Assembly (NCBI GenBank): GCA_023383705.1
Contig: JAHDYM010000005.1
Coordinates: 2,695-66,694 of the forward strand
Direction: 5' to 3'
DNA from: Gammaproteobacteria bacterium
Lineage (GTDB): Bacteria > Pseudomonadota > Gammaproteobacteria > Steroidobacterales > GCA-2729495
DNA length: 64,000 nt
Shown here: positions 15,601 through 50,780 of the stretch, one piece after another
Position numbering within the stretch: the stretch's first letter is position 1
Layout of the letters: the number at the start of each line of letters is the position of its first letter
Position numbers and translations under genes: made by a program
Notes under the pieces: generated by a model
Database searches by the model: none
What the model was told of the DNA's origin: nothing
The model's input: only the letters and a program-made list of their open reading frames with translations

Positions 15601-15619
15601 TCCAGCGCCCGGAATTCCC

Positions 15620-16537: not shown

Positions 16538-16543
16538 CGTCCG

Positions 16544-17185
16544 TCAGCGCCAGGCGACACCGGAGATCACCGGCCTGATCACCGGCGGCATCTTCCGTGA
16601 GCTGAAGCACTCGATTTCCACGCGTGCAAAGCCGACGGAATCCAGCAGCGCGGCGGTCTCGCGGTTGGTGTGGCAGCCCTCGAACAGCCAGCGCCAGGGC
16701 CGCATCAGCAGGTCCTGCACGCGGCGCAGGCCGGTGCGCGGTGCCGCCGCGACGTGCTCGAGGAAGTAGAGCTTGCCACCCGGTTTCAGTACCCGCCGCA
16801 GCTCGTGCAGGATCTGGCCGGGATCCGTCACGGTACACAACACCAGCGTACAGACCGCCGCATCGACCGACTGGTCAGGCAGGTCGAGCTGGCTGGCGCT
16901 GACCGGGCGGAGTTCGCATTGCACGGCGTGCCTGCGGGCTGCTTCCTGCAGGCGGGCATGCATCCAGCGGTTGGGCTCGTAGACCACCAGTTGCACGCCC
17001 GGCGGGTAGTAGCGGAAGTTCACGCCATTGCCGGCGCCAATCTCCACCACCGTGCCGTTCATGCTGCCCAGATGCTGCTGCTTGCGCGCACCCATCTCTT
17101 CGTGGAAATCGTCCTCGTACTTCGCCAGCAGCCAGGAATTGAACCGGCCGCGTACGGGGTTGTCGTGTACATGCTGGTCGCCCAT
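16544..17185 (-). CDS. class I SAM-dependent methyltransferase
   Basis: 213 aa. Motif I is VVEIGAGNGVN, followed by the post-I and motif II/III layout (LKPGGKLYFLEH). Confidence 0.8.
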   Translation of the reverse strand: MGDQHVHDNPVRGRFNSWLLAKYEDDFHEEMGARKQQHLGSMNGTVVEIGAGNGVNFRYYPPGVQLVVYEPNRWMHARLQEAARRHAVQCELRPVSASQLDLPDQSVDAAVCTLVLCTVTDPGQILHELRRVLKPGGKLYFLEHVAAAPRTGLRRVQDLLMRPWRWLFEGCHTNRETAALLDSVGFARVEIECFSSRKMPPVIRPVISGVAWR

Positions 17186-35245: not shown

Positions 35246-36021
35246 GACGTTCAGCATCTGCCTGTTGCCTTGCCCTGATTCTGCTGGTCGCGCTGCTTCC
35301 TGCTGTTGCCGGCGCCGGCTCGATTACGGTAGCGGCCGCATCGGACCTCAAGTTCGCGATGTCGGAAATCGTCGCCGGTTTTCAGGCCGCGCATCCGGAT
35401 GACACCATCGAGGTGGTCTACGGCTCGTCCGGCAAGTTCCATGCGCAGATCGCCAATGGCGCGCCCTTCGACCTGTTCTTCTCCGCGGATATCGCCTACC
35501 CGCGTGCACTGGAACAGCAGGGCCTGAGCAGCGGAGCGACAAGGCCCTATGCGGTCGGCCGCATCGTCCTGTGGAGCCTCCGGCCGGAACTCGGCCGCTT
35601 GTCCCTGCAGGAGCTGCCGACGGCGGCCATCCGCAAGTTCGCCATTGCCAATCCTGAGCACGCGCCCTACGGCAAGCGCGCGCAGGAGGCGCTGGAGCAT
35701 GCGGGCGTGTGGATGGCGATGGCGCCGAAGCTGGTGCGGGGCGAGAATATCGCGCAGACCGCGCAGTTCATCGACAGCGGTGCCGCCGATGCCGGCATCG
35801 TCGCGCTGTCGCTGGTGCTGGCACCGGACCTCAAGGGCAAGGGGACATGGACGCTGATTCCCGACAGCTGGCATGAGCCGCTGGAGCAGGGCTATGTGAT
35901 CACCAGGCGTGCCGAAGCGAATCCGCTGGCCGCTGCCTTTGCGGCCTGGATCGAGACTGATGCGACGCGTGAGATACTGCGCCGCTACGGTTTCGCGCTG
36001 CCGGGCGAGGGGACGCAGTAG
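35242..36021 (+). CDS. modA: molybdate ABC transporter periplasmic binding protein
   Basis: ATG 35242 overlaps the modE stop (ATGA). It has a signal peptide. ITVAAASDLKFAM...VVYGSSGKF..QI..GAPFDLFFSAD is ModA-like. Confidence 0.9.
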   Translation: MRRSASACCLALILLVALLPAVAGAGSITVAAASDLKFAMSEIVAGFQAAHPDDTIEVVYGSSGKFHAQIANGAPFDLFFSADIAYPRALEQQGLSSGATRPYAVGRIVLWSLRPELGRLSLQELPTAAIRKFAIANPEHAPYGKRAQEALEHAGVWMAMAPKLVRGENIAQTAQFIDSGAADAGIVALSLVLAPDLKGKGTWTLIPDSWHEPLEQGYVITRRAEANPLAAAFAAWIETDATREILRRYGFALPGEGTQ

Positions 36022-36023
36022 GC

Positions 36024-36701
36024 ATGTCGGGGGCAGACCTGCAGGCCTTGCGGACGACGCTCGCGCTCGCTGCCCTCACCACGCTGATCCTGTTGCTGGT
36101 CGGCACGCCGCTGGCCTGGTGGCTGGCGCGCACCCGCGCGCGCGCCGCGCTGCTGCTCGAAGCCGTGGTGGCCCTGCCACTCGTGCTGCCGCCGACGGTA
36201 CTCGGTTTCTACATGCTGGTGGCGCTGGGTCCGCAGGGGCCCGTGGGCGGCCTGCTGCAATCCTTCGGCCTGCCGCACCTGGCCTTCACCTTTACCGGAC
36301 TCGTGCTCGCGTCCACGCTCTATTCACTGCCCTTCATGGTGCAGCCGTTGCGGGACGCTTTTGTCGCCGTCGGCCGCCAGATGACGGAATCCGCGGCGAC
36401 GCTGCGGGCCGGCCCCTGGGACCGCTTCTTCAGCATCGTCGTGCCCATGTCGAGACGCGGCTTTATCACGGCGATTACGCTCTGCTTCGCGCACACGGTG
36501 GGTGAGTTCGGCGTGGTGCTGATGGTCGGTGGCAATATCCCGGGCGAAACCCGCGTGCTCTCGATCGCCATCTACGACCACGCCGAAGCGCTGGACTACG
36601 CTTCCGCACATCTGCTGGCCGGCAGCCTGCTGGTGGCGTCTTTCCTGCTGCTGCTCGGCGTGTATGCGATGAACCGGCGGCACCGCCTGGCGCAGTCTTG
36701 A
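36024..36701 (+). CDS. modB: molybdate ABC transporter permease
   Basis: 225 aa and hydrophobic. It has an EAA-loop-type segment (ESAATLRAGPWDRFFSIVVP). It sits between modA and modC. Confidence 0.9.
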   Translation: MSGADLQALRTTLALAALTTLILLLVGTPLAWWLARTRARAALLLEAVVALPLVLPPTVLGFYMLVALGPQGPVGGLLQSFGLPHLAFTFTGLVLASTLYSLPFMVQPLRDAFVAVGRQMTESAATLRAGPWDRFFSIVVPMSRRGFITAITLCFAHTVGEFGVVLMVGGNIPGETRVLSIAIYDHAEALDYASAHLLAGSLLVASFLLLLGVYAMNRRHRLAQS

Positions 36702-37768
36702 GCATTGCGGCACGCTTTCAGCTGGCCTGGCCGGGCTTCAGCCTGGATGTGGATCTGCGTATTCCCGCCACGGGCGTGACAGCGCTGTACGGCCCTTCCG
36801 GTTCGGGCAAGACCACGCTGCTGCGCTGCGTGGCCGGTCTGGAGCGCGCAGCCTCTGGTGTTCTCGCGCTCGGCGACGAGATCTGGCAGGACCAGACGCA
36901 GTTCCTGCCGACCCACCGGCGCGCGCTCGGCTATGTCTTCCAGGACGCGGCGCTGTTCCCGCACCTGAGCGTGCAGGAGAATCTCGAGTTCGGGCTCCGG
37001 CGCATCGCTGCCGGCGATCGTCGTGTTTCGCTCGACGAGGCCGTCGACCTGCTCGGGATACGGTCTTTGCTTTCCCGTCGGCCCGAACGTCTTTCCGGTG
37101 GTGAACGCCAGCGCGTGGCCATCGCGCGTGCGCTGGCTGTGAGTCCGCGCCTGCTGCTGCTCGACGAACCGCTGGCCGCACTCGATCTCGCGCGCAAGCG
37201 GGAAATCCTGCCGTATCTGCAGCGCCTGCACGAGACGCTGCAGATCCCGGTGCTCTACGTCACGCATTCACCGGATGAGGTCGCGCGCCTTGCCGATCAC
37301 CTCGTCGTGCTGAACCAGGGGCGCGTGCTTGCCAGCGGCCCGGTGGCGACCGTGATGTCGCGGCTCGATCTGCCCGGCAGCCACGAGGATGATGCAGGTG
37401 TGGTGCTCGAGGCCACGGTTGCCGGGCGGGATGCCGAGTGGCACCTGCTGCGCGTGGAGGTTCCGGGTGGCAGCCTGTGGGTGCAGGACAACGGGGTGGC
37501 GATCGGTCGCAGGCTGCGCCTGCGGGTGCTGGCCCGCGACGTGAGCCTCGCGCTCAGCCGCGCCGACGACGTCAGCTTCCTCAATCTGCTGCCGGCCACG
37601 GTCACGGCGATCGCGGCGAGTGCCCATCCGGCCGCCAGGCTGGCGCAGATCGATGTGGGCGGCACCCTGCTGCTCGCCCGCCTGACCGCACGCTCGGTGC
37701 ATGCGCTGGACCTGCAGCCCGGCAAGCAGGTCTGGGCACAGCTCAAGTCCGTGGCTGTCATCGAGTAG
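36698..37768 (+). CDS. modC: molybdate ABC transporter ATPase with C-terminal TOBE/Mop domain
   Basis: TTG start overlapping the modB stop. Walker A is GPSGSGKTT, the signature is LSGGERQRVAIARAL, and Walker B is LLLLDEP. A TOBE tail follows. Confidence 0.9.
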   Translation: MSIAARFQLAWPGFSLDVDLRIPATGVTALYGPSGSGKTTLLRCVAGLERAASGVLALGDEIWQDQTQFLPTHRRALGYVFQDAALFPHLSVQENLEFGLRRIAAGDRRVSLDEAVDLLGIRSLLSRRPERLSGGERQRVAIARALAVSPRLLLLDEPLAALDLARKREILPYLQRLHETLQIPVLYVTHSPDEVARLADHLVVLNQGRVLASGPVATVMSRLDLPGSHEDDAGVVLEATVAGRDAEWHLLRVEVPGGSLWVQDNGVAIGRRLRLRVLARDVSLALSRADDVSFLNLLPATVTAIAASAHPAARLAQIDVGGTLLLARLTARSVHALDLQPGKQVWAQLKSVAVIE

Positions 37769-37902
37769 CTGCCACCCCCCCCTGTGGACAGCGGTCCCCC
37801 GGCATTTCGGGTAACGAAGCGTTGTTGAACGGAAGGCGGCCAAGCCCCCATCGCCCTGACATCAGAATCGAAATTCATTTATAGAAACCCCGTTACGACA
37901 TA

Positions 37903-37931
37903 TTGACAAGGCCAGCGTTGCCCAGTACTGT
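37903..37931 (+). promoter_or_regulatory. putative sigma70 promoter of the R-M/defence operon, bracketed by an 11-bp inverted repeat
   Basis: TTGACA (37903-37908), 17-nt spacer, TACTGT (37926-37931). It sits in an A/T-rich stretch about 40 nt upstream of ATG 37971. CCGTTACGACA (37890-37900) and TGTCGTAACGG (37947-37957) flank it. Confidence 0.4.
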
Positions 37932-37970
37932 GTCGCCACAGTCAGTTGTCGTAACGGCGTTTTTGCATTT

Positions 37971-38540
37971 ATGTACCTTGGTAGGCTCGCCGAAGTCCAG
38001 ATGGGCTTCCCGTTCCGGTCGCGTCTGGAGCACGACCCGCAGGGCGACGTGGCGGTAATCCAGATGAAAGACATCGATGGCGCCAACCTGCTCCATGCTG
38101 AGGAGGCCATCAGGGTGATGCTGCCAAAGGGCAAGACACGTCACATGTTGCGAGCGGGCGACCTGCTGTTCCGCTCGCGCGGTCGCAGCAATGGTGCGGC
38201 ACAGGTAATGGAGGGGATCGGCTCGGCCGTGCTTTCTGCGCCGATGCTGCTGATCCGGCCCCGCGGCGTGCTGCCCGAGTACCTGTGTTGGTACCTCAAC
38301 ACACCGGCCACCCAGGCGCAGCTTGCGGCGATGGCAGAGGGTACGTCGGTACGGATGATCAGCGCCGAAGCCCTGAAGACGCTGGACGTGCCGCTGCCCC
38401 CGCTGGACGTACAACGTCGCATCGCCCAGGCCGCCGCCCTGGCGGAACAAGAAAAAACGCTGCTGGCGCGGATCGCCACCCTTCGCGAGCGCCTGTCCAC
38501 CCAACTCCTGATCAAGTTTGTCCGTGAGGCCACGCCATGA
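37971..38540 (+). CDS. hsdS: type I restriction-modification specificity subunit, half-size (single target-recognition domain)
   Basis: 189 aa. It has one TRD followed by one conserved coiled region (LPPLDVQRRIAQAAALAEQEKTLLARIATLRERL). Its stop overlaps the hsdM ATG (ATGA). Confidence 0.7.
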   Translation: MYLGRLAEVQMGFPFRSRLEHDPQGDVAVIQMKDIDGANLLHAEEAIRVMLPKGKTRHMLRAGDLLFRSRGRSNGAAQVMEGIGSAVLSAPMLLIRPRGVLPEYLCWYLNTPATQAQLAAMAEGTSVRMISAEALKTLDVPLPPLDVQRRIAQAAALAEQEKTLLARIATLRERLSTQLLIKFVREATP

Positions 38541-40111
38541 CTGAACAGCTCATCCAGCAAGACGTCAACAACACCGCCTGGGCGGCCTGCGACACCTTTC
38601 GCGGCGTCGTCGACCCGGCGCAGTACAAGGACTACATCCTGGTGATGCTGTTCCTCAAGTACATCAGCGACCAGTGGGCCGACCACTACGCTGAATACCG
38701 GAAGGAGTACGGCGACAACGAGGAGCGCATCCGCCGCAAGCTGGAGCGCGAGCGCTTCATCCTCCCCTACGTCGAATTCAAGGACGAGAAGACCGGCAAG
38801 GTCACCGACCGTTTCCTGGCCGACTTCCATGCCCTGTACGAGCGGCGCAAGGCCGCCAACCTCGGCGAGCTGATCAATATCGTGCTCGACCACATCGAGG
38901 AGGCCAACAAGGCCAAGCTTGAAGGTGTGTTCCGCAATATCGATTTCAACTCCGAGGCCAATCTCGGCAAGACCAAGGACCGCAACCGCCGCCTGGAAAA
39001 CCTGCTGGGCGATTTCGCGAGGCTCGACCTGCGCCCCTCCCGCGTCTCCGAGGACGTGATCGGCAATACCTACATTTACCTGATCGAGCGTTTTGCCTCC
39101 GACGCCGGCAAGAAGGCTGGCGAGTTCTACACGCCCAAGCAGGTCTCGAAGCTGCTGGCGCAACTGGCCGCGCCCAAGCCCGGTGACCGCATCTGCGACC
39201 CCACCTGCGGTTCCGGTGGCCTGCTGATCGAAGCCGCCGCACTGGTCGAGGCGCAAGGCAGCCACGGAAATCCAAACAAGGACTTTGCCCTGTTCGGCCA
39301 GGAGGTCAACGGCAGCACCTGGGCACTGGCACGCATGAACATGTTCCTGCACGGCAAGGACGCAGCCCGCATCGAGTGGGGCGATACCCTCAACAGCCCG
39401 GCACTCGTCGAGGCCGACCGTCTGATGCGCTTCAACGTGGTGGTAGCCAACCCGCCATTCAGTCTGGACAAGTGGGGCAGCGCAGAGGCCGCGGCCGACC
39501 GCTACAGCCGATTCTGGCGCGGCCTGCCGCCCAAGTCCAAGGGCGACTATGCCTTCATCACCCACATGATCGAGACCGCGCTGCCGCAGGAAGGTCGCGT
39601 GGCCGTGGTGGTACCCCACGGTGTGCTGTTCCGGGGCGGTGCCGAAGGCCGCATCCGCCGTGCGCTGATCGAGGAAAACCTGCTGGATGCCGTCATCGGC
39701 CTGCCGGGCAACCTCTTCCCCACCACCTCCATCCCGGTCGCCATCCTGGTGTTCGATCGCGCCCGCGAGAAGGGCGGCGCCCGCGAAGCCTGCCAGGACG
39801 TGCTCTTCATCGACGCCAGCCGCGATTATCAGTCCGGCAAGAACCAGAACGCCCTGCTGGACGAGCATATGGCCAAGGTGCTCGCTACCTTCCGTGCCCG
39901 GCAGCCGGTGGACAAATATGCCCATGTGGCGAGCCTCCAGGAGATCGCCGACAACGACTTCAACCTCAACATCCCGCGCTACGTGGACACCTTCGAAGAA
40001 GAAAAAGAGATCGATGTGGCTGCGGTCGAGCAAGAGATCGAGCGACTGGAAGGCGAACTGGCGGAAGTGCGCGTGCGCATGAAGCAGTACCTCAAGGAAC
40101 TTGGCATATGA
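38537..40111 (+). CDS. hsdM: type I restriction-modification N6-adenine DNA methyltransferase subunit
   Basis: 524 aa. It has an HsdM N-domain, SAM motif I (DPTCGSGGLL) and catalytic motif IV (VVANPPFS). Confidence 0.95.
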   Translation: MTEQLIQQDVNNTAWAACDTFRGVVDPAQYKDYILVMLFLKYISDQWADHYAEYRKEYGDNEERIRRKLERERFILPYVEFKDEKTGKVTDRFLADFHALYERRKAANLGELINIVLDHIEEANKAKLEGVFRNIDFNSEANLGKTKDRNRRLENLLGDFARLDLRPSRVSEDVIGNTYIYLIERFASDAGKKAGEFYTPKQVSKLLAQLAAPKPGDRICDPTCGSGGLLIEAAALVEAQGSHGNPNKDFALFGQEVNGSTWALARMNMFLHGKDAARIEWGDTLNSPALVEADRLMRFNVVVANPPFSLDKWGSAEAAADRYSRFWRGLPPKSKGDYAFITHMIETALPQEGRVAVVVPHGVLFRGGAEGRIRRALIEENLLDAVIGLPGNLFPTTSIPVAILVFDRAREKGGAREACQDVLFIDASRDYQSGKNQNALLDEHMAKVLATFRARQPVDKYAHVASLQEIADNDFNLNIPRYVDTFEEEKEIDVAAVEQEIERLEGELAEVRVRMKQYLKELGI

Positions 40112-41118
40112 GTGGTGGCGAGCTGATCCTCTACACCGCCGAGGATGGCAGCGCCGCCATCCAGCTGCGTGCCGAAGACGGCACGGTCTGGCTGACGCAG
40201 CTCGAAATGGCCACGCTGTTCGACACCTCCAAGCAGAACGTCAGCCTGCACATCAAGAACATCCTGGCCGAGGGCGAACTGTCTCCGGCAGTCGTCAAGG
40301 AATACTTGACAACTGCCACTGACGGGAAGAACTACAAAACAAAGGCTTACAACCTCGACATGATCCTGGCCGTCGGCTACCGGGTGCGCTCCCCGCGCGG
40401 CACCCAGTTCCGCCAATGGGCCACCACCCACCTGCGCGAATACCTGGTCAAGGGTTTCGTGCTGGACGACGCCCGGCTCAAGGAGCCCGGTGGCTGGGAC
40501 TACTTCGACGAACTGCTGGCGCGTATCCGCGATATCCGCGCCTCGGAGAAGCGCTTCTACCAGAAGATCCGCGACATCTACGCTACCGCCGTGGATTACG
40601 ACAGCAAGTCGGAGGCTGCCCAGCTGTTCTTCAAGAAGGTACAGAACAAGATGCTCTGGGCCGTCACCGGCCACACCGCGCCCGAGCTGATCGCCGGCCG
40701 CGCCGACCCCGCCCTGCCCAACATGGGCCTTACCACCTGGGCCGGCGGCCGGGTGCGCAAGCAGGATGTCACCATCGCCAAGAATTACCTGAGCCAGGAC
40801 GAGATCGAGGCGCTGGATCGCATCGTCGTCATGTACCTCGACTATGCCGAGGACCAGGCCCAGCGTCGCTGCACCCTGACCATGCTCGACTGGGAAGACA
40901 AGCTCGACGCCTTCCTGCAGTTCAACGAGCGCGAGGTGCTGACCCACGCCGGCAAGCTGCGCGCGGATGTAGCGGAGAAGCTGGCGTTAGAGCGGTACGA
41001 GAGTTTCGACGCCGCTCGGCGTGAAGCGGCGCGGCTGGCGGCGGATGCCGTAGACATGGCGGCGCTGGAGAAGGCCGAACGGCAACTGGAAGGCAAGGGG
41101 CGGGGGAAGAGAAAATGA
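40108..41118 (+). CDS. rhuM: RhuM-family protein
   Basis: Start trimmed to ATG 40108 (ATGA overlap with hsdM). MSGGELILYTAEDG...IQLRAEDGTVWLTQLEMATLF...NVSLHIKNI...LDMILAVGYRV.S..GTQFRQWAT is the typical RhuM N-terminus. Confidence 0.8.
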   Translation: MSGGELILYTAEDGSAAIQLRAEDGTVWLTQLEMATLFDTSKQNVSLHIKNILAEGELSPAVVKEYLTTATDGKNYKTKAYNLDMILAVGYRVRSPRGTQFRQWATTHLREYLVKGFVLDDARLKEPGGWDYFDELLARIRDIRASEKRFYQKIRDIYATAVDYDSKSEAAQLFFKKVQNKMLWAVTGHTAPELIAGRADPALPNMGLTTWAGGRVRKQDVTIAKNYLSQDEIEALDRIVVMYLDYAEDQAQRRCTLTMLDWEDKLDAFLQFNEREVLTHAGKLRADVAEKLALERYESFDAARREAARLAADAVDMAALEKAERQLEGKGRGKRK

Positions 41119-42332
41119 AAACGCCCGTCAATTGGAAAAGCACGCTGCTTCATCGTGTTGCCGAAGTTCGATCTGGTCTGTCGAAGAGCACGAAACGCGA
41201 AGGACCGACTGTCAGGAAACCCTACTTGCGGGTTGCGAATGTCCAAGACGGCTTCCTTGACCTGTCAGAAATCAAGGAAATCGATGCGCCAGAGAATCAG
41301 GTCGCGCGCTTCACGTTGAAGCAGGGAGACCTGCTGCTAATTGAAGGCAACGGCAATCCTGAAAACCTCGGGCGCGGATGCATTTGGGATGGCCAAATCC
41401 CGGAATGCGTCCATCAGAACCATGTCTTCGCCGTACGGACTCTGCCCGACGCTGAAATGCTGCCGGAGTTCATGGCGCTTCAGCTTCAGTCAGATCACGG
41501 ACGCAATTATCTCCTTTCATGCGCAAAGGGTTCGACAGGTCTATCTACGCTCAACTCTGCGCAGTTGAAGGAGTTCCCTCTACTCTCGCCGTGCGTCACA
41601 GAACAGCGATCCATTGTCGCTGCGATTGCGACCTGGAACACCGCCATCCAGAGAACCGAGCAACTGATCGCGGCGAAGGCGAGGCAAAAAGCTGGTTTGA
41701 TGGCTGAATTGCTTACTGGGCGCCGGCGTCTTGCCGGGTTCCAGACGGCGTGGCGCACTTGGCATCTCGGTGAGTTGTTCCGGGAACGGGTGGAGAACAA
41801 CCGGAAAGACCTGCCCCTGCTCTCAATCACAAGAGAGGAAGGAGTAGTCCCACGAGATTGTCTTGACCGAAAAGACACCGCCAGCGAAGACAAGTCGAAG
41901 TACCTGCGTATCTGCCCAGGCGATATTGGTTACAACACCATGCGAATGTGGCAAGGCGTTTCGGCACTGTCTCGCCATGAAGGAGTTGTCAGCCCCGCTT
42001 ACACGGTTTGCATTCCTGGCCCGGAGATTGACGGCACGTTTGCGTCCTACTTGTTCAAGCTGCCGGAAGTGGTTCACCTGTTCTACCGCTTCTCACAGGG
42101 CCTAACCTCGGACACATGGAACCTAAAGTTCCACCACTTCGCGGCAATAAGAGTTCGTATCCCTGAGCCCGAAGAGCAAGTCGCTATTGCTTCACTTCTC
42201 TCGATTCTTGATGAGGAACTGGCGCTCATCAGGCAACAACGCGACGCACTTGCACATCAGAAGCGCGGCCTGATGCAGAAGTTGCTCACCGGCCAGTGGC
42301 GGCTGCCCATCGAGGAGGAGGCAATGGCATGA
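41115..42332 (+). CDS. hsdS: type I restriction-modification specificity subunit, full length (two TRDs)
   Basis: 405 aa. It has two variable TRDs separated by and ending in conserved helices (...KAGLMAELLTGRRRL... and ...KRGLMQKLLTGQWRL). The DNA here is visibly more A/T-rich than its surroundings. Confidence 0.9.
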   Translation: MKTPVNWKSTLLHRVAEVRSGLSKSTKREGPTVRKPYLRVANVQDGFLDLSEIKEIDAPENQVARFTLKQGDLLLIEGNGNPENLGRGCIWDGQIPECVHQNHVFAVRTLPDAEMLPEFMALQLQSDHGRNYLLSCAKGSTGLSTLNSAQLKEFPLLSPCVTEQRSIVAAIATWNTAIQRTEQLIAAKARQKAGLMAELLTGRRRLAGFQTAWRTWHLGELFRERVENNRKDLPLLSITREEGVVPRDCLDRKDTASEDKSKYLRICPGDIGYNTMRMWQGVSALSRHEGVVSPAYTVCIPGPEIDGTFASYLFKLPEVVHLFYRFSQGLTSDTWNLKFHHFAAIRVRIPEPEEQVAIASLLSILDEELALIRQQRDALAHQKRGLMQKLLTGQWRLPIEEEAMA

Positions 42333-42832
42333 GCGATCTCATCACCAAACTGGCCGACGAGGCCAACCGGATCGAGGAAGACACCGAGCACTCGTTCAAG
42401 GGGCACTACAACGCGGCAGCGCGCTGGGGCCGCTATCACCTTTGTATCGGCTTACCCGCCGCGCTGTCGGCGGCGAGCGCCGGTGCAGCCGCCTTCAGGG
42501 ACCAGCCGGAGTGGGCAGGTGCGCTTGCGCTGGTGTCCACCGCGCTAACAACCGTATTGACGTTTCTGAAGCCATCGGAGCGGGCGGAGATGCACAAAGC
42601 CGTCGCCGGTCAGTACCAGTCGCTGCGCAATCAGGCACGTATCTTTCGGGAGATCGGCCTGTTGGACGGCATGGCGCCTGAGGAAGCCAAGACCCGCCTG
42701 TTCGCACTTGCAGAGGCACGTGACGAACTAAACCAGCGGGCGCCAGCCATCGCACGTGGTGATTACGAGTTGGCAAAGCAGGATATCGATGGCGGGCGGG
42801 CCCGCTACCGTGCAGATGAGTCGAAACCATGA
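42329..42832 (+). CDS. SLATT-like small membrane protein (two adjacent TM helices flanked by helical regions), putative pore-forming effector
   Basis: Start at ATG 42329 (ATGA overlap with hsdS), giving 167 aa. The N-helix is followed by YHLCIGLPAALSAASAGAAAF, then RDQPE, then WAGALALVSTALTTVLTFL, then a charged helical tail. It lies immediately upstream of a SMODS-type NTase. Confidence 0.65.
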   Translation: MSDLITKLADEANRIEEDTEHSFKGHYNAAARWGRYHLCIGLPAALSAASAGAAAFRDQPEWAGALALVSTALTTVLTFLKPSERAEMHKAVAGQYQSLRNQARIFREIGLLDGMAPEEAKTRLFALAEARDELNQRAPAIARGDYELAKQDIDGGRARYRADESKP

Positions 42833-43647
42833 CTATTAACAGCTATCTCTCCGGCCTTGCTATTCAGGCGATCCTCCGCGATGACGAGAAAGCGAGCGTG
42901 CAGCGTTCGATTATTGCGTTGCAAACCCGCTTGGCCAACCACTTTGGTACACAGATCGATCGGCACTTTGTGTTTGGCTCCTATAGCCGTGGAACCATCC
43001 TGCCCCGTTCGATGGATCCGCAATCGGATGTCGATTACATGGTGGTCTTTGCCGATACCGGACTACAGCCGCAAAGCTACTTGGATCGTCTGCGTCGATT
43101 CGCTGAGGTCCAGTACGCCCGATCCGAAGTGGCGCAATCGAACCCGACTGTGGTGCTGGAACTCAACCACATTCGCTTCGAGCTGGTTCCCGCTGTAAGG
43201 AACTGGATCGGTGGCCTGCAGATCCCCGGCAAGGGCTCCGGTTATCAGAGTTGGCAAGATACCGACCCGAACGGTTTCAACCAGACGCTGAGCAACACAA
43301 ATCAGGCCAATGGCAATCTCATCAAGCCCCTGGTCAGAGTCATGAAGTACTGGAACGCCACGGCCGATTACCCCTTCGAGTCCTATGCACTGGAACAACA
43401 TATTGCTGGGCAGGGATATAGCTTCCTTGGGCTGCTTGCCTCTCGCCAATTGGCGCAATACTTCTTCGAAGCTGTCGACTCACTAGAAGCGGGCTGGTAC
43501 TCGCCGCAATGGAAGCAGGATGCGGTACGACGTCTTAAAGAGTTGGCCTCTCATGCCCAGTCCAAAGAGCGGTCTGGCCAACCGGGCGTTGCGGAAATCA
43601 CGCTCAGGCGACTGCTGCCCCCAGTTGGCCGCGCGGTGAGGGTCTGA
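42829..43647 (+). CDS. SMODS / minimal Pol-beta-fold nucleotidyltransferase (CD-NTase-like)
   Basis: 272 aa, with ATG overlapping the SLATT stop (ATGA). The NTase motif is FGSYSRGT (G50-S51), then D67-V-D69 (nt 42976-43035). A third acidic residue lies in RFELVPA (E118). Confidence 0.7.
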   Translation: MTINSYLSGLAIQAILRDDEKASVQRSIIALQTRLANHFGTQIDRHFVFGSYSRGTILPRSMDPQSDVDYMVVFADTGLQPQSYLDRLRRFAEVQYARSEVAQSNPTVVLELNHIRFELVPAVRNWIGGLQIPGKGSGYQSWQDTDPNGFNQTLSNTNQANGNLIKPLVRVMKYWNATADYPFESYALEQHIAGQGYSFLGLLASRQLAQYFFEAVDSLEAGWYSPQWKQDAVRRLKELASHAQSKERSGQPGVAEITLRRLLPPVGRAVRV

Positions 43648-43649
43648 CG

Positions 43650-46600
43650 GTGGACTCCTTCCGCTTCGATGAGAAATACCTCTCCCAGATCCCAGCGCTA
43701 CAGGTCCTGGTCAATCTGGGCTACCAGTACCTGACGCCTGCCGAGGCGCTGGCCGCACGCGGCGGCAAGGCCGGTAACGTGCTGCTGGAGGAGATCCTGC
43801 GCGAGCAATTGAAGAAGCGGAACCGCATCCAGCACAAGGGCGGCAGTTATCTCTTCAGCGAGGAGAACATCCAGAGCGCTATCCAGCGTCTGAAGAACGT
43901 CAAGTACGACGGTCTGCTCAAGACCAACGAGGCGGTGTACGACCTGTTGACGCTGGGCGTGGCGCTGGAGCAAACCATCGAGGGCGATCTGAAGAGCTTC
44001 ACCCTCAACTACATGGACTGGCGCAACCCGGCAAACAACGTCTATCACGTGGCCGCCGAGTTCGCGGTGGAGCGCACGCGCAGCGTGGAGACCTGCCGGC
44101 CGGACGTCGTGCTGTTCGTCAACGGCATCCCCTTCGCGGTGATCGAATGCAAATCGCCCAGGGTCGAGGTGGCCCAGGCTATCTCGCAGACCATTCGCAA
44201 CCAGCGCGACGAGTACATCCCGCGCCTGTTCAGTTATGTGCAGATGGTGCTGGCGCTCAACAAGAATGAGGCGCGCTACGCCACCACCGGCACCCCAGCC
44301 AGGTTCTGGTCGAAATGGAAGGAGGACGTGGCGGATGCTGAGTTGGCGCCACTGCTGGAGCGCCCGCTGCCGGAGTCGGTCAAGGCCTCGCTGTTCGATC
44401 TGGCCTTTGCCGAGCTGGGTGTACGCGAGGAAATCGCGCCCTATCTGGTCGGCCGGCAGGTGACCGAGCAGGATCGAACACTTTACGCGCTCTGCCGCCC
44501 TGAACGCCTGCTGGAAATGGCCTGGGCCTTCACGGTGTTTGATGGCGGCGTGCGCAAGATCGCGCGCTACCAGCAGATGTTCGCCATTCGCGAGGTGCTC
44601 GCACGCGTCAAACAGACGGACGACAGCGGCAAGCGGCGCGGTGGCATCGTCTGGCACACCCAGGGTTCGGGCAAGTCGCTGACCATGGTGATGCTGGCGC
44701 GCGCGCTGGCACTGGAACCCGCGATCCGCAACCCGCGCATCGTGCTGGTCACCGACCGGGTGGATCTGGACAAGCAGCTCGGCAACACCTTCACCGCCTG
44801 TGGCCTTTCGCCCGACCGCGCCGAGAGCGGCCGCCACCTGGTGGAGCTGGTGTCAGACGGAAAAGCGCATATCGTCACCACCCTGGTGCACAAGTTCGAC
44901 AAAGCGCTGGCCTACAAGAAATTCAGCGACGCCTCGCCCGACATCTTCGTGCTGGTGGACGAGACCCAGCGTACACAGCTGGGCGGCTATTCGGCGCGCA
45001 TGCGGCAGATGTTCCCCAATGCCTGCTACATCGGCTTTACCGGCACGCCACTGCTCACTCGCGAGAAAAGCGATGTCGCCAGGTTCGGTGGTGTGATCCA
45101 CACCTATGCCATCGACCAGGCGGTGGCCGACGGTGCCATCGTGCCGCTGCTCTATGAAGGGCGCATGGTGGAGCTGGAGCAGAACCAGGCGGCGATCGAC
45201 GTCTGGTTCGAGCGCCACACCCAGGGTCTCACCGACCCGCAGAAGGCCGACCTCAAGAGGAAGTACGCCCGCGCCGAGATGCTGAACAAGGCCGAGCAGG
45301 TGATCTACATGCGTGCCTTCGACATCAGCGAGCATTACCGCCAGAACTGGCAGGGCACCGGCTTCAAGGCACAGCTCGTGGCCCCCAACAAGGCGGCGGC
45401 GCTGCGCTACAAGGCATTTCTCGATGAGCTGGGCACGGTCAGCAGCGAGGTGATCATCTCCCCGCCCGATGAGCGAGAAGGCTTCGATGAGATCGATGCC
45501 GAGGAGTCCAGCGATGCGGTAGTGGCCTTCTGGCAGCGCATGATGAGGCGCTATGGCTCGGAGGAGGACTACAACAAGCAGATCGTCAACGCCTTCAAGT
45601 TCGGCGAAGAGCCGGAGATCCTGATCGTGGTGGACAAGCTGCTGACCGGCTTCGACGCACCGCGCAACACCGTGCTCTATCTCACCCGCCGGCTCAAGGA
45701 CCACTCCCTGCTGCAGGCCATCGCCCGGGTGAATCGCCTCTACGAAGATGAGTCCGGCAGCAAGGCCAAGGACTTCGGTTACGTCATCGACTACGTGGGC
45801 GTACTCGGTGAACTGGACCAGGCGCTGAGCACCTACAGCGCCCTGGATGGATTCGAGGCGGCGGATCTCGAGGGCGCGCTGACCTCGATCCATGCGGAAG
45901 TCCGGGCACTGCCGCAGCGCCATGCGGAACTGTGGGACCTGTTCAAGACGGTGAAAAACCGTCAGGACGAGGAGGCCTTCGAACTGCTGTTGTCGAATGA
46001 AAAGCTGCGCGCGGATTTCTACGAGCGGCTGACAGCCTACGCGAAGACTTTGGGGATAGCGCTGTCCAGCGAACGCTTCATCACCGAGACGCCAGAGCAG
46101 AAGCTGCACACCTACAAGAACGATCTGAAACGCTTCGTCAATCTCAAGGCAGCAGTGAAGCTGCGCTATGCCGAGTCCGTGGACTACCGCGATTTCGAGT
46201 CGCGCATCCAGAAACTGCTCGACACGCACATTTCGGCTTCCGAAGTGGTGCGATTGAATGCACCGGTGAACATCTTCGACGAAGCCGCATTTCAGAAAGT
46301 CGTTGAGGAACAGGGCGCTGGCGGCGAGAAGAACCTGGGCGCCAAGGCCGACATGATCGCGCACGCTACCAGGCGCGCCATCAACGAGCGGCTGGAGCAG
46401 GACCCGGCCTTCTACGAGAAGTTCTCGAAGCTGATCCAGCAGGCCATCGACGACTACCGCGCCAGGCGCCTGTCTGATCTGGAGTACCTGCAGCGTGTCA
46501 CCGAGATCAGGCAAGCCGTGGTCTCGCGCAAGGGCGACGACCTGCCGCCGGCGCTGAATGGTGACGCCGATGCGGCCGCCGTCTATGGCCTGCTGCGCCC

Positions 46601-46865
46601 CTTCGTGGCGAGCCATCTGAGCGATACCGAGCAGGCCCGGAGCACCGCCGCCGAGGCCGCCGTGGCGGTGTGGGATATCTTCCGGCGCAACAGGAAGGTG
46701 GGCTACTGGGACGACCTAGACGCGCAACGCCGCACCATGAACGAGATCGACGACTATCTCTATGACGACGTGAAGGGCGCGCGCGGCATCGCGCTATCCA
46801 CCGACGAAATGGACGAGATCATCGAGAAGACCATGCAGCTCGCCCGCCACCGGATGGAAGGGTGA
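43650..46865 (+). CDS. hsdR: type I restriction enzyme R subunit (helicase/nuclease)
   Basis: 1071 aa with GTG start 2 nt after the NTase stop. It has an N-terminal PD-(D/E)xK region (PDVVLFVNGIPFAVIECK). The SF2 motifs are TQGSGKS, VLVDETQR and FTGTP, with the later helicase motifs also present. Confidence 0.95.
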   Translation: MDSFRFDEKYLSQIPALQVLVNLGYQYLTPAEALAARGGKAGNVLLEEILREQLKKRNRIQHKGGSYLFSEENIQSAIQRLKNVKYDGLLKTNEAVYDLLTLGVALEQTIEGDLKSFTLNYMDWRNPANNVYHVAAEFAVERTRSVETCRPDVVLFVNGIPFAVIECKSPRVEVAQAISQTIRNQRDEYIPRLFSYVQMVLALNKNEARYATTGTPARFWSKWKEDVADAELAPLLERPLPESVKASLFDLAFAELGVREEIAPYLVGRQVTEQDRTLYALCRPERLLEMAWAFTVFDGGVRKIARYQQMFAIREVLARVKQTDDSGKRRGGIVWHTQGSGKSLTMVMLARALALEPAIRNPRIVLVTDRVDLDKQLGNTFTACGLSPDRAESGRHLVELVSDGKAHIVTTLVHKFDKALAYKKFSDASPDIFVLVDETQRTQLGGYSARMRQMFPNACYIGFTGTPLLTREKSDVARFGGVIHTYAIDQAVADGAIVPLLYEGRMVELEQNQAAIDVWFERHTQGLTDPQKADLKRKYARAEMLNKAEQVIYMRAFDISEHYRQNWQGTGFKAQLVAPNKAAALRYKAFLDELGTVSSEVIISPPDEREGFDEIDAEESSDAVVAFWQRMMRRYGSEEDYNKQIVNAFKFGEEPEILIVVDKLLTGFDAPRNTVLYLTRRLKDHSLLQAIARVNRLYEDESGSKAKDFGYVIDYVGVLGELDQALSTYSALDGFEAADLEGALTSIHAEVRALPQRHAELWDLFKTVKNRQDEEAFELLLSNEKLRADFYERLTAYAKTLGIALSSERFITETPEQKLHTYKNDLKRFVNLKAAVKLRYAESVDYRDFESRIQKLLDTHISASEVVRLNAPVNIFDEAAFQKVVEEQGAGGEKNLGAKADMIAHATRRAINERLEQDPAFYEKFSKLIQQAIDDYRARRLSDLEYLQRVTEIRQAVVSRKGDDLPPALNGDADAAAVYGLLRPFVASHLSDTEQARSTAAEAAVAVWDIFRRNRKVGYWDDLDAQRRTMNEIDDYLYDDVKGARGIALSTDEMDEIIEKTMQLARHRMEG

Positions 46866-47572
46866 AGGCCATGGTTGGCAGCCTGACCTACGGCCGGGAC
46901 ACTATCCGCTACGAGGTACGCTTCCTCACATCGCGCCAGACGCTGGCCATCGAGGTCCATCCCGACAGTCGTGTGCTGGTGCGCGCACCGATGGGCTGTC
47001 CGGAGGCCCTGATCGTGGAGCGGCTGCAGAAGCGCGCTGGCTGGATCAGCCGGCAACTGGCCGAGTTCGAGCGCTATCGCCCCCGTACTCCGGCGCGACA
47101 GTACGTCAACGGTGAATCGCACCTTTATCTTGGCCGGCAGTACCGGCTGAAGCTGATACCGGGCGATGCGGCCGGCGTGAAACTCGCACGTGGCGTGATG
47201 CTTGTCAGCCTGCCTGGTGACGCTGACCCGGAGCGCGTCAAGGCGCTTCTGCATCGTTGGTATCTCGACCGTGCCCGGGCCGTGTTCAGCGAAGTCCTGG
47301 AAGCCGGACTTCTCCACCTGAAGGGCATCGACCAGCCGCATCTGATGGTGCGTGCAATGCAATCTCGCTGGGGCAGCCTGTCACGCGCCGGCACCATGAC
47401 ATTGAACGTGAATCTGGTGCGCGCGCCTCGCCCCTGTATCGAATACGTGGTCACCCACGAGCTGTGCCATATCCGGTACCGCGATCACGATGGCCGGTTC
47501 TTCAAGCTGCTTGGGCAGCTGATGCCCGATTGGGAGAACCGTAAGCGGAAACTGGAGGCGGCGTTGCTATGA
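46862..47572 (+). CDS. M48/YgjP-like (DUF45) zinc metallopeptidase
   Basis: 236 aa. The GTG start overlaps the hsdR stop (ATG 46871 is the alternative start). It carries the HELCH zinc motif (VVTHELCHIRYRDH). Confidence 0.8.
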   Translation: MKAMVGSLTYGRDTIRYEVRFLTSRQTLAIEVHPDSRVLVRAPMGCPEALIVERLQKRAGWISRQLAEFERYRPRTPARQYVNGESHLYLGRQYRLKLIPGDAAGVKLARGVMLVSLPGDADPERVKALLHRWYLDRARAVFSEVLEAGLLHLKGIDQPHLMVRAMQSRWGSLSRAGTMTLNVNLVRAPRPCIEYVVTHELCHIRYRDHDGRFFKLLGQLMPDWENRKRKLEAALL

Positions 47573-47697
47573 GGTGCTGCCGAACCGATGGTCTGCTCGA
47601 TGCCGGTACCAACCATGCTTAAGATAGCCGCCCTTCGGCGTGTTCTGAGTTATCACGTCCCGTGGCACAATTCGCCCCATTCACCGGAGAGAACTCG

Positions 47698-47958
47698 ATG
47701 TTTCAGGCAATGATTCGCGGCGCAGTGCTGGCCGTGTTGCTGGTCGCGACGGCACAGGCCGGGGGCACGCAGTCGCCAGCAACGGCAGCAGCAGGCAAGC
47801 CTGCACCCGTTGCGCAGGCCAACGCTGTGCGCAAGGCTTTGGTGGCGCAGGACGGGCAGGTGGAACTTGCGGCATCACAATTCAGCGATGCGCAGCTTGC
47901 CGGCATGCGTCCGGACTATGCGCAGCTCAAGCCCCGCGCACGTACCAATGCCGAGTGA
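47698..47958 (+). CDS. small secreted hypothetical protein
   Basis: ATG 47698 with GGAGAG upstream. The signal peptide is MFQAMIRGAVLAVLLVATAQA. There is no recognisable domain. Confidence 0.45.
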   Translation: MFQAMIRGAVLAVLLVATAQAGGTQSPATAAAGKPAPVAQANAVRKALVAQDGQVELAASQFSDAQLAGMRPDYAQLKPRARTNAE

Positions 47959-47997
47959 CTGAATCCCTCTTTGCGTCCTTGAGATCTGGTTGAGGTC

Positions 47998-48459
47998 ATG
48001 GCCCGACGCCATCCGGCACTGATTCCGGTTGCCCGCGATCATCATGAATGCCTGATTCTGGCCCAGCGCCTGATGCACGGTACGACGGCACCGGCTCGCG
48101 ACTGGCCGCGCGAGCCGGCGCCACAGGCTGAGCTGCTGGCTGCGTTCTTCAGGCGGCATCTGCAGGCGCACTTCGCGGTCGAGGAGGCACTGGTATTCCC
48201 GGCAGCCCGGGTTGCCGGGCCTGCAGCGGAAGCCCTGGTCGCGCAACTCCTCGACGAGCACCGGAAAATGACCAGCCTCGTCGCCCAGCTGGCGGCCAAC
48301 CCGCAGGTCACGGTGGCCGAGTTGCGTGCCTTTGGTGAATTGCTGAACGCCCACATTCGCCTGGAGGACCGGCAGCTCTTCCCGATGATGGAAACAGGGA
48401 TGCCGGCCGATGCGCTGCTGGACCTGCAGCGGCTGGTTGAAGCACGTTACGCGCCCTAG
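47998..48459 (+). CDS. hemerythrin (HHE cation-binding) domain protein
   Basis: 153 aa. His/Glu pairs recur on helices (DHHECL, HLQAHFAVEE, LDEHRKM, NAHIRLED). Confidence 0.7.
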   Translation: MARRHPALIPVARDHHECLILAQRLMHGTTAPARDWPREPAPQAELLAAFFRRHLQAHFAVEEALVFPAARVAGPAAEALVAQLLDEHRKMTSLVAQLAANPQVTVAELRAFGELLNAHIRLEDRQLFPMMETGMPADALLDLQRLVEARYAP

Positions 48460-50780
48460 AGCTTGCCCAGCGCCGCGAGGATCTTCTCCGGCGTGATCGG
48501 CAGCTCGCGGATGCGCACGCCGATCGCGTTGTAGATGGCGTTGGCGATGGCCGGTGCCGGTACCGTGATGCAGGGCTCGGACAGCGATTTCGCGCCGAAG
48601 GGTCCGCTCGGCTCATTCGACTCGATGAAGATGCTCTGGATGTCGCGCGGCATTTCCACCGCGGTCGGGATCTTGTAGTCGAGGAAATCGCCCGCGAGGC
48701 AGGAGCCTGACACCGGGTCGAACAGCAGGTTTTCCATCAGCGCGTAGCCCATGCCCTGCTGGAAGCCGCCCTCCACCTGGCCTTCGGCGCCGTTGCGGTG
48801 GATCAGCTTGCCGAGGTCGTGCGCGTAGACCACGCGCAGCACCTGTACCTGGCCGGTCTCCGTATCCACTTCGACCTCGACGAACTCCACCGATACCGGC
48901 GAGGGATTGCTCTTCGGCGCGAGGCTGGAGACGCCGATGATCGTGCCCTTTTCCTCGAGCGTGGTCGGTGCCGGGCCGTTCTTGCCGTGCTGTACGAAGG
49001 GAGATTCGGCGCGGGTGACGACCTCGGCGACGCTCAGCGAGCGCTTCGGATCGGCCTTGACCGAGACCCTGCCGTTGGCCACGGCAAGCTGTTCCGGATT
49101 GATATCGAGCATGATGCCCGCGACCTTCAGCAGGCGTTCCCGGACCGTGCGCGCGGCAGCCTGCACGGCGTTGCCGGCACTGTAGGTCGCGCGGCTGGCA
49201 TGGGTGGGCGCATCCACCGGCACGGTGGTGGTGTCGGAGTTCTGCACCATGCGCACGGCCTCCATCGGCAGGCCGAGTTCTTCAGCCGCTATCTGGCAGA
49301 GCGTGGTCGTCTGGCCGGAGCCGATGTCCATCGTGGCGATGGCGAGGTCGGCGGTGCCATCGACGTTGAGCTTGATGATGGCGCCCGAGTGCTCGTAGAT
49401 ATCCGGGAAGCCGACGCAGCCGCTGACCCACAGCGGCTGGCAGGCAAAGCCCATGCCGCGCTTTTTCGTGCCGCTGCCGCTGTCGGCCTTTTTCCGCTGC
49501 GACCAGCCGATGCGCTCGGCGCCGCTCTGCAGGCACTCATCGAAGGCATAGCTGTCGAGCGTCACGCCCGGGACCATCGGATGCGGTTCACCGGCGTGCC
49601 AGGCGTTCTTGCGGCGGAACTCGATGGGATCGAGCTTGAGTTGCTCGCAGATCTCGTCGATCTGCGATTCAGCCGCAAAGCAGGCCTGCGGCGAGCCGTA
49701 GCCGCGATAGCCGCCGCCGATCATGTTGTTGGTATAGACCGTATAGCCTTCCCACTTGCTGTTGGGGCAGCGATAGGTCATCAGCAGGCCGAACACGCCG
49801 TGGACGTTGATGACCTCGGCGCCGTGCGTGGCATGGGCGCCGGTGTCGAGGATGCTCCTTGCATGGCGGGCGGTGAAGGTGCCGTCCTTCTTCACGCCGG
49901 TCTTCAGGTAGACCTTGATCGGGTGCCGCGCGGTGGTGATGAAGTCCTCGTAGCGCGTCTGCTCGATGCGCACCGGGCGACCGGTCTTCCGGCTCAGCAG
50001 GGCGGCGATCGGCTCGATGTAGCCGATGTCCAGCTTGCCGCCGAAGCCGCCGCCGATGTAGGGCGCCTTGATGACCCGCACCTTGCTCTCGGGGATCTCC
50101 AGCGCGTAGGCAAGTTTCTCGCGCACGCCGAACAGGTGCTGCGTGGAGGAGTGCACGGTGAAATTGCCCTGCCGGTCGCAGTCCACGATGCACACGCGCG
50201 GTTCCATGTAGCAGGTATGCACCCGGTGGCTGCTGTAGACACCCTCGAAGATGTAGTCGGCTTCGGCGAAGCCCTTGTCGAGATCGCCGAAGCCGATCAC
50301 CGGATTCACGGCCACGTTGTTGGGCGCATGCTCGTGCAGTTGCGGTGCACCCGGCTGCATGGCTTCTTCGGGGTCGAAGACGGTCGGCAGTTCCTCGTAC
50401 TCGACCTCGATCAGTTCGATGGCCTGCTCGGCGATGCGCAGCGAGGTCGCCGCGACTGCCGCAACCGGCTGGCCGGCAAAGCGCACGGTGTCGCTCATGA
50501 TGAGCATGTCCTGCACCATGCTGCCGGCATCGGTGGGCACGAAGTACACGGGGGTGAACTTGCGCTTGGGTACTTCGGAAGGCACCAGCACGGCTTTCAC
50601 GCCGGGTAGTTTCTCGGCGGCGCTGGTATCGATGCGGAGGATGCGCGCATGCGGGTAGGGGCTGCGCAGCAGCTTGGCGTGCAGCATGCCCGGTACCTTG
50701 ACGTTGACCGGAAAGGCCTTGCCGCCGGTGACCTTGTCGAAGGCGTCGGGACGCTCCGGGCTCGTTCCAATCAGGCTCAT
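48456..50780 (-). CDS. xanthine dehydrogenase/aldehyde oxidase-family molybdopterin-binding large subunit
   Basis: Start trimmed to MSLIGTSPERPDAFDKVTG (CAT at 50778-50780). It carries GGGFGGK and GGGYRGYGSPQ motifs. Confidence 0.9.
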   Translation of the reverse strand: MSLIGTSPERPDAFDKVTGGKAFPVNVKVPGMLHAKLLRSPYPHARILRIDTSAAEKLPGVKAVLVPSEVPKRKFTPVYFVPTDAGSMVQDMLIMSDTVRFAGQPVAAVAATSLRIAEQAIELIEVEYEELPTVFDPEEAMQPGAPQLHEHAPNNVAVNPVIGFGDLDKGFAEADYIFEGVYSSHRVHTCYMEPRVCIVDCDRQGNFTVHSSTQHLFGVREKLAYALEIPESKVRVIKAPYIGGGFGGKLDIGYIEPIAALLSRKTGRPVRIEQTRYEDFITTARHPIKVYLKTGVKKDGTFTARHARSILDTGAHATHGAEVINVHGVFGLLMTYRCPNSKWEGYTVYTNNMIGGGYRGYGSPQACFAAESQIDEICEQLKLDPIEFRRKNAWHAGEPHPMVPGVTLDSYAFDECLQSGAERIGWSQRKKADSGSGTKKRGMGFACQPLWVSGCVGFPDIYEHSGAIIKLNVDGTADLAIATMDIGSGQTTTLCQIAAEELGLPMEAVRMVQNSDTTTVPVDAPTHASRATYSAGNAVQAAARTVRERLLKVAGIMLDINPEQLAVANGRVSVKADPKRSLSVAEVVTRAESPFVQHGKNGPAPTTLEEKGTIIGVSSLAPKSNPSPVSVEFVEVEVDTETGQVQVLRVVYAHDLGKLIHRNGAEGQVEGGFQQGMGYALMENLLFDPVSGSCLAGDFLDYKIPTAVEMPRDIQSIFIESNEPSGPFGAKSLSEPCITVPAPAIANAIYNAIGVRIRELPITPEKILAALGKL

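Follow-up and report, generated by a model that had tools for sequence, protein, structure and literature searches.

A probable CBASS-like SLATT and nucleotidyltransferase pair carried between hsdS and hsdR in a type I restriction operon

Type I systems of cyclic oligonucleotide-based antiphage signaling (CBASS) with SLATT6 or 4TM transmembrane (TM) effectors confer strong and broad defense in Escherichia coli (bioRxiv 10.1101/2023.05.21.541620), and a lactococcal pair formed by a SLATT protein (PF18186; SLATT_4) and a nucleotidyltransferase of the cGAS/DncV-like kind (CD-NTase) is among the verified antiphage systems (PMC11381338). The embedding of defense genes in type I restriction-modification (RM) operons has also been described already, as in the cases of PrrC (PMC12707154), TgvAB and DarTG2, and more broadly under the name 'guilt-by-embedding'. 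In the current study we analyzed a stretch of 64,000 nucleotides (nt), hereafter the window, from contig JAHDYM010000005.1 of a Gammaproteobacteria bacterium (GenBank assembly GCA_023383705.1), in which the genes of a SLATT protein of 167 amino acids (aa) and of a SMODS nucleotidyltransferase (NTase) of 272 aa are nested between hsdS and hsdR of a type I RM operon. We document the identity of these genes, the fold and catalytic residues of the enzyme, the coupling of the operon, the recurrence of its architecture and the interchangeability of its cargo. Pairs of this kind are already catalogued: PADLOC calls the locus as CBASS type I, the homologs carry RefSeq annotations and the embedding is documented.

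Our analysis indicates that the two genes probably constitute a two-gene, type I CBASS-like abortive infection module that is carried as cargo in the hsdS-hsdR slot and functions independently of restriction. The pair would most likely represent an independent second defense layer and not a physical partner of the restriction enzyme, and its position as slot cargo means that it is co-transcribed, translationally coupled and mobilized together with that enzyme. If this ordinary reading is true, the locus provides one more example of layered defense, with restriction acting first and abortive infection second, within a single coupled operon. Like EcCdnF04-SLATT6, EcCdnD12-4TM and the lactococcal SLATT_4 and CD-NTase system, the pair is composed of two genes, a CD-NTase and an adjacent two-helix SLATT, and it also shares with type I CBASS the GS...DxD...acidic core, the absence of ancillary Cap genes and the carriage on prophages, plasmids and islands. 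Of the features that characterize CBASS type I, the pair shows a CD-NTase with a GS...[DE]x[DE]...[DE] core and, overlapping and adjacent to its gene, that of an effector predicted to cause cell death or arrest. Besides, the type I CBASS logic proposed by an earlier reading of the sequence alone (hereafter the original prediction), which had seen no cyclase-associated ancillary genes, is in agreement with our results, since Cap2/Cap3, HORMA/TRIP13 and Cap9/Cap10 were not found among the other six operon genes, which were assigned by profile search (RhuM, YgjP-like and half-size hsdS) or by homology to annotated genes (hsdM, hsdS and hsdR). The window pair differs from the usual type I CBASS in having a short enzyme (272 aa) without the AGS-C domain, a glutamate (E118) where a third aspartate is usual, a SLATT protein of the SLATT_4 type without a sensor domain, and a location embedded in an hsd operon.

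The SMODS/CD-NTase identity of the 272-aa enzyme was confirmed by Pfam, PADLOC and Foldseek. The enzyme matches the Pfam SMODS model with an E-value of 1.9e-36 (126 bits) and is covered end to end by the 261-position profile of the PADLOC Cyclase PDLC00769 (E 1.9e-106), and the core residues named in the original prediction (G50, S51, D67, D69 and E118) are invariant across 27 homologs, E118 aligning with the third catalytic aspartate of one solved CD-NTase. The AlphaFold model, with a predicted local distance difference test score (pLDDT) of 74.5 and a predicted TM-score (pTM) of 0.75, has its best Foldseek match in the Pseudomonas aeruginosa CdnD 6p8u (E 4e-8, TM 0.65), followed by E. coli CdnC and then by CdnG, CdnB and CdnE (TM up to 0.67), and the top 30 matches are CD-NTases throughout. 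Moreover, a profile of the NTase family searched against the PDB recovered solely CD-NTases at E <0.01, with CdnD as the best match (5e-11). Profile comparisons and the predicted model demonstrate a CD-NTase fold for this enzyme, with the clade-D enzymes as its closest solved relatives. The E-values of the family matches of both the SLATT protein and the NTase are far beyond chance.

An identity as MNT/KNT or aminoglycoside nucleotidyltransferase was rejected, because NTP_transf_2 scored 22 bits versus 126 bits for SMODS and a streptomycin adenylyltransferase was hit in the PDB by the family profile at an E-value of only 0.48; the possibility raised in the original prediction that profile searches might place the protein in a non-signaling NTase family was thus not realized. 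The view of the enzyme as a minimal cyclase, shorter than typical ones, did not hold either, as the solved chains of CdnE, CdnB and P. aeruginosa CdnD have about 272-302 aa and the PADLOC family profile has fewer positions than the window protein has residues. A large protease-sensing activation loop has been described for CD-NTases of clades A and G and for a part of clade D (PMC12991175), and such a loop (about 30 aa; PMC12991175) was not evident in the NTase model, in which the only internal low-confidence stretches are located at approximately residues 125-146 and 194-207 (none exceeding about 22 aa).

The other product of the pair, of 167 aa, is a SLATT protein, as had been proposed from its two closely spaced hydrophobic helices. 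It matches the NCBIfam SLATT_4 model with 117 bits (cutoff 55; E 5e-34) and, over its full length, the PADLOC CBASS 'Effector 2TM' model PDLC00712 (E 1.7e-64), and a SLATT hit thus exists, even though the scores of the Pfam SLATT models were under threshold. The hydropathy profile displays two moderately hydrophobic segments rich in alanine, serine and threonine (residues ~37-56 and 60-80, with peaks of 1.66-1.71), and the AlphaFold model (pLDDT 90) is all-helical, with a 37-56/60-80 hairpin that is continuous with long helices predicted to be cytoplasmic. These cytoplasmic helices are strongly conserved in the alignment of homologs, with an EEDxEHSxKxHxN block that is invariant close to the N-terminus and further invariant positions within LRNxxRxFRE and DYxxAKxDIDxG. 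The conserved, charged helices might conceivably serve as a ligand-binding site. The start of the gene was placed at position 42329 because the homologs begin at the methionine of MSDL, encoded by an ATG, and have 167 aa; the in-frame GTG at 42296, which would give a longer protein, was considered as a start and rejected on the same grounds.

Homology searches revealed that the SLATT and NTase families are both large and length-conserved, with at least 1,520 NTase and at least 260 SLATT clusters at 90% identity, in addition to more than 2,500 clusters (90% identity) for the 4TM-linked relative of the NTase. In a one-genome-per-species scan, 153 loci were recovered and 80 of them were kept, and their contexts were sorted with the window's own proteins into four classes. 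Group A (about 20 loci, including most of the closest relatives) presents the order half-size hsdS, hsdM, (RhuM), hsdS, SLATT, NTase, hsdR and YgjP, and was found in Acidobacteria, Xanthomonadales, Thiodiazotropha, Verrucomicrobia, Cyanobacteria and an actinobacterial metagenome-assembled genome. Group B (about 13 loci, mostly of Burkholderiales) has the order hsdM, hsdS, hsdR, SLATT and NTase and belongs to a distinct type I family (HsdR 26-30% identical), the same layout being present on an Aeromonas plasmid. In the 17 loci of the third class the NTase is partnered not by SLATT but by a 4TM effector (PADLOC 4TM, E 2e-77; Pfam S_4TM), and one of these loci (L080) sits within a type I operon. 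The remaining loci show mixed surroundings, such as Eco57I-type enzymes, XhoI, Mrr, BrxC, strawberry-notch helicases, resolvases and housekeeping genes. In addition, the SLATT-SMODS pair was detected in 98 of 5,426 complete E. coli genomes, where RefSeq names the products 'SLATT domain-containing protein' and 'SMODS domain-containing nucleotidyltransferase', and the three E. coli contexts inspected consisted of a prophage terminase neighbor or a recombinase-bounded island, with zero restriction genes. With respect to EcCdnD12-4TM, a third search for homologs gave no close relatives named as E. coli.

Some individual copies of these relatives have features of their own. The Lactococcus lactis plasmid pMRC01 (L081, positions 6001-7548) encodes a homolog of the NTase (47% identity over 195 aa) and, after it, a 252-aa hypothetical protein, with an ISS1 transposase and a recombinase on the flanks of the two genes; the plasmid is conjugative and bacteriocin-carrying, and these genes may represent an unrecognized NTase/4TM defense pair on a classic dairy plasmid. 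The Aeromonas caviae plasmid NZ_CP121793.1 (L082, positions 573-16771) encodes WYL, hsdM, hsdS, hsdR, a frameshift-split SLATT and the NTase, and this cluster adjoins genes of a type I-F CRISPR-associated transposon (Cas6f, Csy3, TniQ and TniB), which suggests that it is carried as transposon cargo. Degraded copies were seen four times (L018, L082, E. coli CH10468 [L087] and the E. coli CAVP888 hit H115), with SLATT interrupted, frameshifted or deleted and the NTase intact, and among the copies seen, a small sample, there was no clear case of the converse degradation, in which the NTase would be broken and SLATT intact.

In the mechanism that we favor, the NTase would produce a nucleotide signal upon an infection cue, this signal would act upon the 167-aa SLATT protein at its conserved cytoplasmic helices, and SLATT would oligomerize into a membrane pore, leading to depolarization and to an aborted infection. 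The signal would be activating rather than inhibitory. The locus represents a natural context for the signal of a short, clade-D-like CD-NTase, for the reading of this signal by a sensor-less SLATT protein and for the question of synergy versus co-regulation with restriction.

The opposite polarity, which appears rather unlikely to us, would correspond to an inhibitory-signal guard as in Hailong or Panoptes, in which a constitutive product of the NTase would keep the SLATT pore shut until phage nucleases or sponges deplete it, opening the pore. Hailong (HalA/HalB) resembles the window pair in being a two-gene operon for a membrane effector and an NTase of the Pol-beta superfamily, and it has been described as using a constitutive, inhibitory oligodeoxyadenylate (poly-dA) signal that is primed on a tyrosine and keeps the channel closed. 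A system of similar components, equated with Hailong by its authors, consists of a pentapeptide-repeat/IRK-channel protein and an NTase/HEPN-like protein (PMC13586616), and Pfam searches found no pentapeptide, IRK or HEPN domains in the window pair. Likewise, no Hailong-named PDB entries occurred among the sequence and profile matches or among the top 50 fold matches of each window model. Homology to Hailong was consequently rejected, as there was no sequence, profile or fold match, in comparisons that did not include the HalA and HalB sequences themselves, and the families differ according to the domain description in PMC13586616, so that the Hailong logic invoked in the original prediction stands as an analogy only. 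The absence of a tail tyrosine noted there was corroborated: the conserved tyrosines of the NTase (Y6, Y52, Y70, Y84, Y96, Y174, Y181 and Y186) are internal or Y6, and no conserved tail tyrosine of the HalB kind was present in the alignment of homologs.

An inhibitory signal finds additional arguments in the DRT10/UG17 system, a reverse transcriptase (RT) with SLATT_5 that is similar to the window pair in the translational coupling of a SLATT protein to a nucleic acid-synthesizing enzyme. It has been reported that DRT10 SLATT effectors are controlled by the DNA made by the partner polymerase and by the host exonuclease SbcB (bioRxiv 10.64898/2026.04.29.721553), and the window SLATT also matches the PADLOC model of RT-associated SLATT proteins (E 2.5e-11). 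The translation of the NTase is coupled to that of SLATT, and in four of the four degraded copies SLATT is broken or missing and the NTase is intact, a small sample that also fits the loss of a toxic gene. DRT10/UG17 relies on a reverse transcriptase with a noncoding RNA template, whereas the partner in the window is a CD-NTase, and an Rfam scan of positions 37000-48500 gave zero matches, i.e., no noncoding RNA partner of the DRT10 kind was detected. An inhibitory signal is opposed by the CD-NTase fold of the enzyme, for which no relationship to HalB or mCpol was detected, by the lack of an evident tyrosine-containing tail of the HalB kind, and by EcCdnD12-4TM, a type I CBASS with a TM effector in which the catalytic DDAA mutant of EcCdnD12 abolished toxicity (bioRxiv 10.1101/2023.05.21.541620) instead of causing it.

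The reading of the pair as an autonomous, CBASS-like module is weakened by several observations. Sequence, profile and fold comparisons with the PDB (top 50 fold matches) recovered no structural relative of the SLATT protein, and profile searches for a nucleotide-sensor domain (SAVED, STING or a Cap15-type barrel) in this protein gave SLATT only. The confidence of the NTase model is only moderate, as its pLDDT indicates, and the NTase reached 99 bits with the NCBIfam equivalog CBASS_cyclase_b (cutoff 200) and 23 bits with cyclase_a, thus falling outside these two curated CBASS-cyclase families and inside the PADLOC cyclase set. In the literature, we found no biochemically characterized member of the exact NTase/SLATT_4 family, the membership of EcCdnD12 not being established. 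Regarding the genomic context, about 34 of the 80 loci show linkage of the NTase family to type I RM, far above what would be expected of a casual neighborhood, and this linkage spans at least three layouts (S-[pair]-R, M-S-R-[pair] and R-S-M-S-[4TM-NTase]) and at least four positions of a neighbor-joining tree of the NTase. Within group A, the divergence of the NTase also correlates partly with that of HsdR (Spearman 0.43, a value reached by 1 of 2000 permutations). The recurrent RM linkage and this correlation are compatible with a functional tie between the pair and the restriction enzyme.

Such a tie could take the form of a PrrC-like guard, in which the NTase and/or SLATT would be silenced by, or would sense, the Hsd complex and fire when Ocr, ArdA or Stp disables restriction. 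The linkage in about 34 loci, with its several layouts and tree positions, and the partial correlation between NTase and HsdR argue in this direction, and the pair occupies the position of prrC between hsdS and hsdR (PMC12707154). As in PrrC/EcoprrI, the abortive infection genes lie inside an hsd operon and are co-expressed with the restriction enzyme, and about 20 related loci share this order. However, the window pair is not homologous to PrrC, which combines an ABC-ATPase with an anticodon nuclease, and it also occurs without RM genes, free-standing in prophages and islands. Furthermore, unrelated cargo fills the same slot in related operons, the RM-embedded variants have no RM-specific sequence feature beyond a short and variable C-terminal extension, and the pairwise-identity correlations of NTase with SLATT (rho 0.80) and of HsdR with HsdM (0.87) are both far above the value of 0.43 for NTase with HsdR. 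We therefore regard a guard of this type as quite unlikely, and hold the same opinion of its variant in which the NTase would monitor whether the Hsd complex is inhibited by anti-restriction proteins or stalled in translocation, and would open the SLATT pore upon failure of restriction. If true, a guard relationship would represent a new sensing mode for CBASS and a nucleotide-signaling analogue of PrrC.

In our reading, the SLATT and NTase genes form one evolutionary unit and the Hsd genes a second one, and the pair has long been resident in the operon layout, with occasional exchange. The status of the pair as an autonomous unit is supported by the NTase-SLATT correlation, by the RM-free E. 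coli copies and by the swap of effectors between SLATT and S_4TM (17 loci plus pMRC01). The same kind of evidence bears on the proposal that the pair serves not for defense but to regulate or modify the restriction enzyme, e.g., through nucleotidylation of Hsd subunits for restriction alleviation, with the small protein as a membrane anchor. Its one supporting argument is the tight coupling to hsdR (a 2-nt gap) together with the protease gene after hsdR, and it is contradicted by the wide distribution of the pair without nearby RM genes, by the modular swapping of SLATT and 4TM effectors, which is typical of CBASS, and by the family matches, which are signaling NTases; we consider it very improbable. 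The protease in question, a YgjP/SprT-like metallopeptidase, could be linked to the control of HsdR (restriction alleviation); its gene overlaps hsdR by GTGA and its position after hsdR is kept across related operons.

The comparison of related operons indicates that the slot, and not the SLATT-NTase pair, is the special feature of this locus. In plasmid operons with the same layout and an HsdR about 50% identical, the slot holds Shedu with an HAD hydrolase, Shedu with DUF3800, or TIGR04141, and this alternative cargo is joined by the same 4-nt overlaps as the window pair. Loci that bear the pair often hold more genes in the slot, including OLD-family ATPase/TOPRIM proteins, dGTPase-like HD proteins, an HAD hydrolase and Abi_2, and in one of them the slot contains a second CBASS (SMODS with AGS-C, and SLATT_6). 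The hsdS-hsdR slot thus behaves as a miniature defense island inside the operon, and the locus documents a modular layout of restriction operons whose slot exchanges defense cargo. In this respect the pair is similar to the cargo formed by TgvAB, DarTG2, Shedu and 'guilt-by-embedding' candidates such as PDC-S05/RhuM, with which it has in common the hsdS-hsdR slot, the same strand, the tight junctions and the interchangeability in related operons, and it differs from other RM-embedded cargo, such as a nuclease or a toxin-antitoxin pair, in being a nucleotide-signaling and pore module. The original prediction had considered the context of the pair unusual. The embedding and the translational coupling are real; nevertheless, the coupling is operon-wide and does not single out the pair, because every junction of the operon is coupled, and the slot holds varied defense cargo in a phenomenon that had been described before. 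SMODS-SLATT pairs adjacent to RM genes have reportedly been noted by Burroughs et al. in 2015.

The window operon is a run of eight genes on the forward strand (positions 37971-47572) in the order half-size hsdS, hsdM, RhuM, hsdS, SLATT, NTase, hsdR and YgjP/SprT-like gene (Table 1), and would correspond to a modular type I layout of half-size hsdS, hsdM, RhuM, hsdS, [cargo], hsdR and SprT/YgjP protease. All the junctions are coupled: five of them by an ATGA overlap, one by a GTGA overlap and one across a gap of 2 nt. An ATGA overlap links the half-size hsdS to hsdM, the ATG of RhuM (40108) overlaps the stop codon of hsdM as ATGA, and hsdS is bounded by ATGA overlaps at both ends. The coordinates and junctions of the two open reading frames (ORFs) of the pair agree with those predicted originally: the ATGA at 42329-32 contains the stop of hsdS and the start of SLATT, the ATGA at 42829-32 contains the stop of SLATT and the start of the NTase, and the stop codon of the NTase (43645-47) is followed by 2 nt and then by the GTG of hsdR at 43650. 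Upstream of the SLATT gene there is a strong Shine-Dalgarno sequence (GAGGAGGAGG). Internal promoters and terminators that could split the pair from the hsd genes did not exceed the counts expected from shuffled sequences, with none on the forward strand inside the pair, and the search for mobile-element signatures flanking the pair returned nothing beyond direct repeats of 12 nt at chance level and imperfect inverted repeats.

Table 1. Coordinates of the genes of the window operon and of additional slot genes in related loci.
Feature	Coordinates	Strand	Evidence or content
Half-size hsdS-like gene (single target-recognition domain), operon gene 1	37971..38540	+	PADLOC Specificity_I E 4e-26; Pfam Methylase_S E 2e-4
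hsdM, type I RM methyltransferase subunit	38537..40111	+	ORF of 524 aa; 57-90% identity to group A HsdM
RhuM-family gene between hsdM and hsdS	40108..41118	+	Pfam Virulence_RhuM E 1e-112; PADLOC candidate PDC-S05 E 1e-149
hsdS, full-length specificity subunit	41115..42332	+	ORF of 405 aa; phmmer matches to hsdS of related loci
SLATT (SLATT_4-type) two-TM-helix effector, 167 aa	42329..42832	+	NCBIfam SLATT_4; PADLOC CBASS Effector 2TM; AlphaFold
SMODS/CD-NTase-fold nucleotidyltransferase, 272 aa	42829..43647	+	Pfam SMODS; PADLOC Cyclase PDLC00769; Foldseek
hsdR, type I restriction endonuclease/translocase subunit	43650..46865	+	ORF of 1071 aa, GTG start; ~50% identity to annotated plasmid HsdR
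YgjP/SprT-like zinc metallopeptidase, operon gene 8	46862..47572	+	Pfam YgjP-like E 8.5e-57
Extra slot genes in related loci	L013:1732-3637; L005:2472-4361; L016:6664-8061; L020:8015-9436; L010:6778-7731		Second CBASS, OLD, dGTPase-like HD, Abi_2

In related plasmid operons, the genes homologous to hsdM bear the annotation of type I RM subunit M. Since the RhuM gene is embedded between hsdM and hsdS, the operon has two embedded cargo positions and not one. At the head of the operon, the half-size hsdS occurs besides the full-length hsdS, and the same position is kept in related operons. The guanine-cytosine content of hsdS (55.5%) and of the NTase gene (56.2%) is clearly lower than that of SLATT (62.9%), of the other operon genes (about 63%) and of the whole window (64.2%), and the two genes of the SLATT-NTase pair thus differ in composition. 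A cluster of modA/modB/modC-like molybdate transporter genes (35002-37768, assigned by eye) ends about 200 nt before the restriction operon. In E. coli SW071618 (L088, positions 1-16542), a recombinase-bounded island with a homologous SLATT-SMODS pair is inserted in ybhA and adjoins modC, and the proximity to modC common to this island and to the window operon may be a coincidence.

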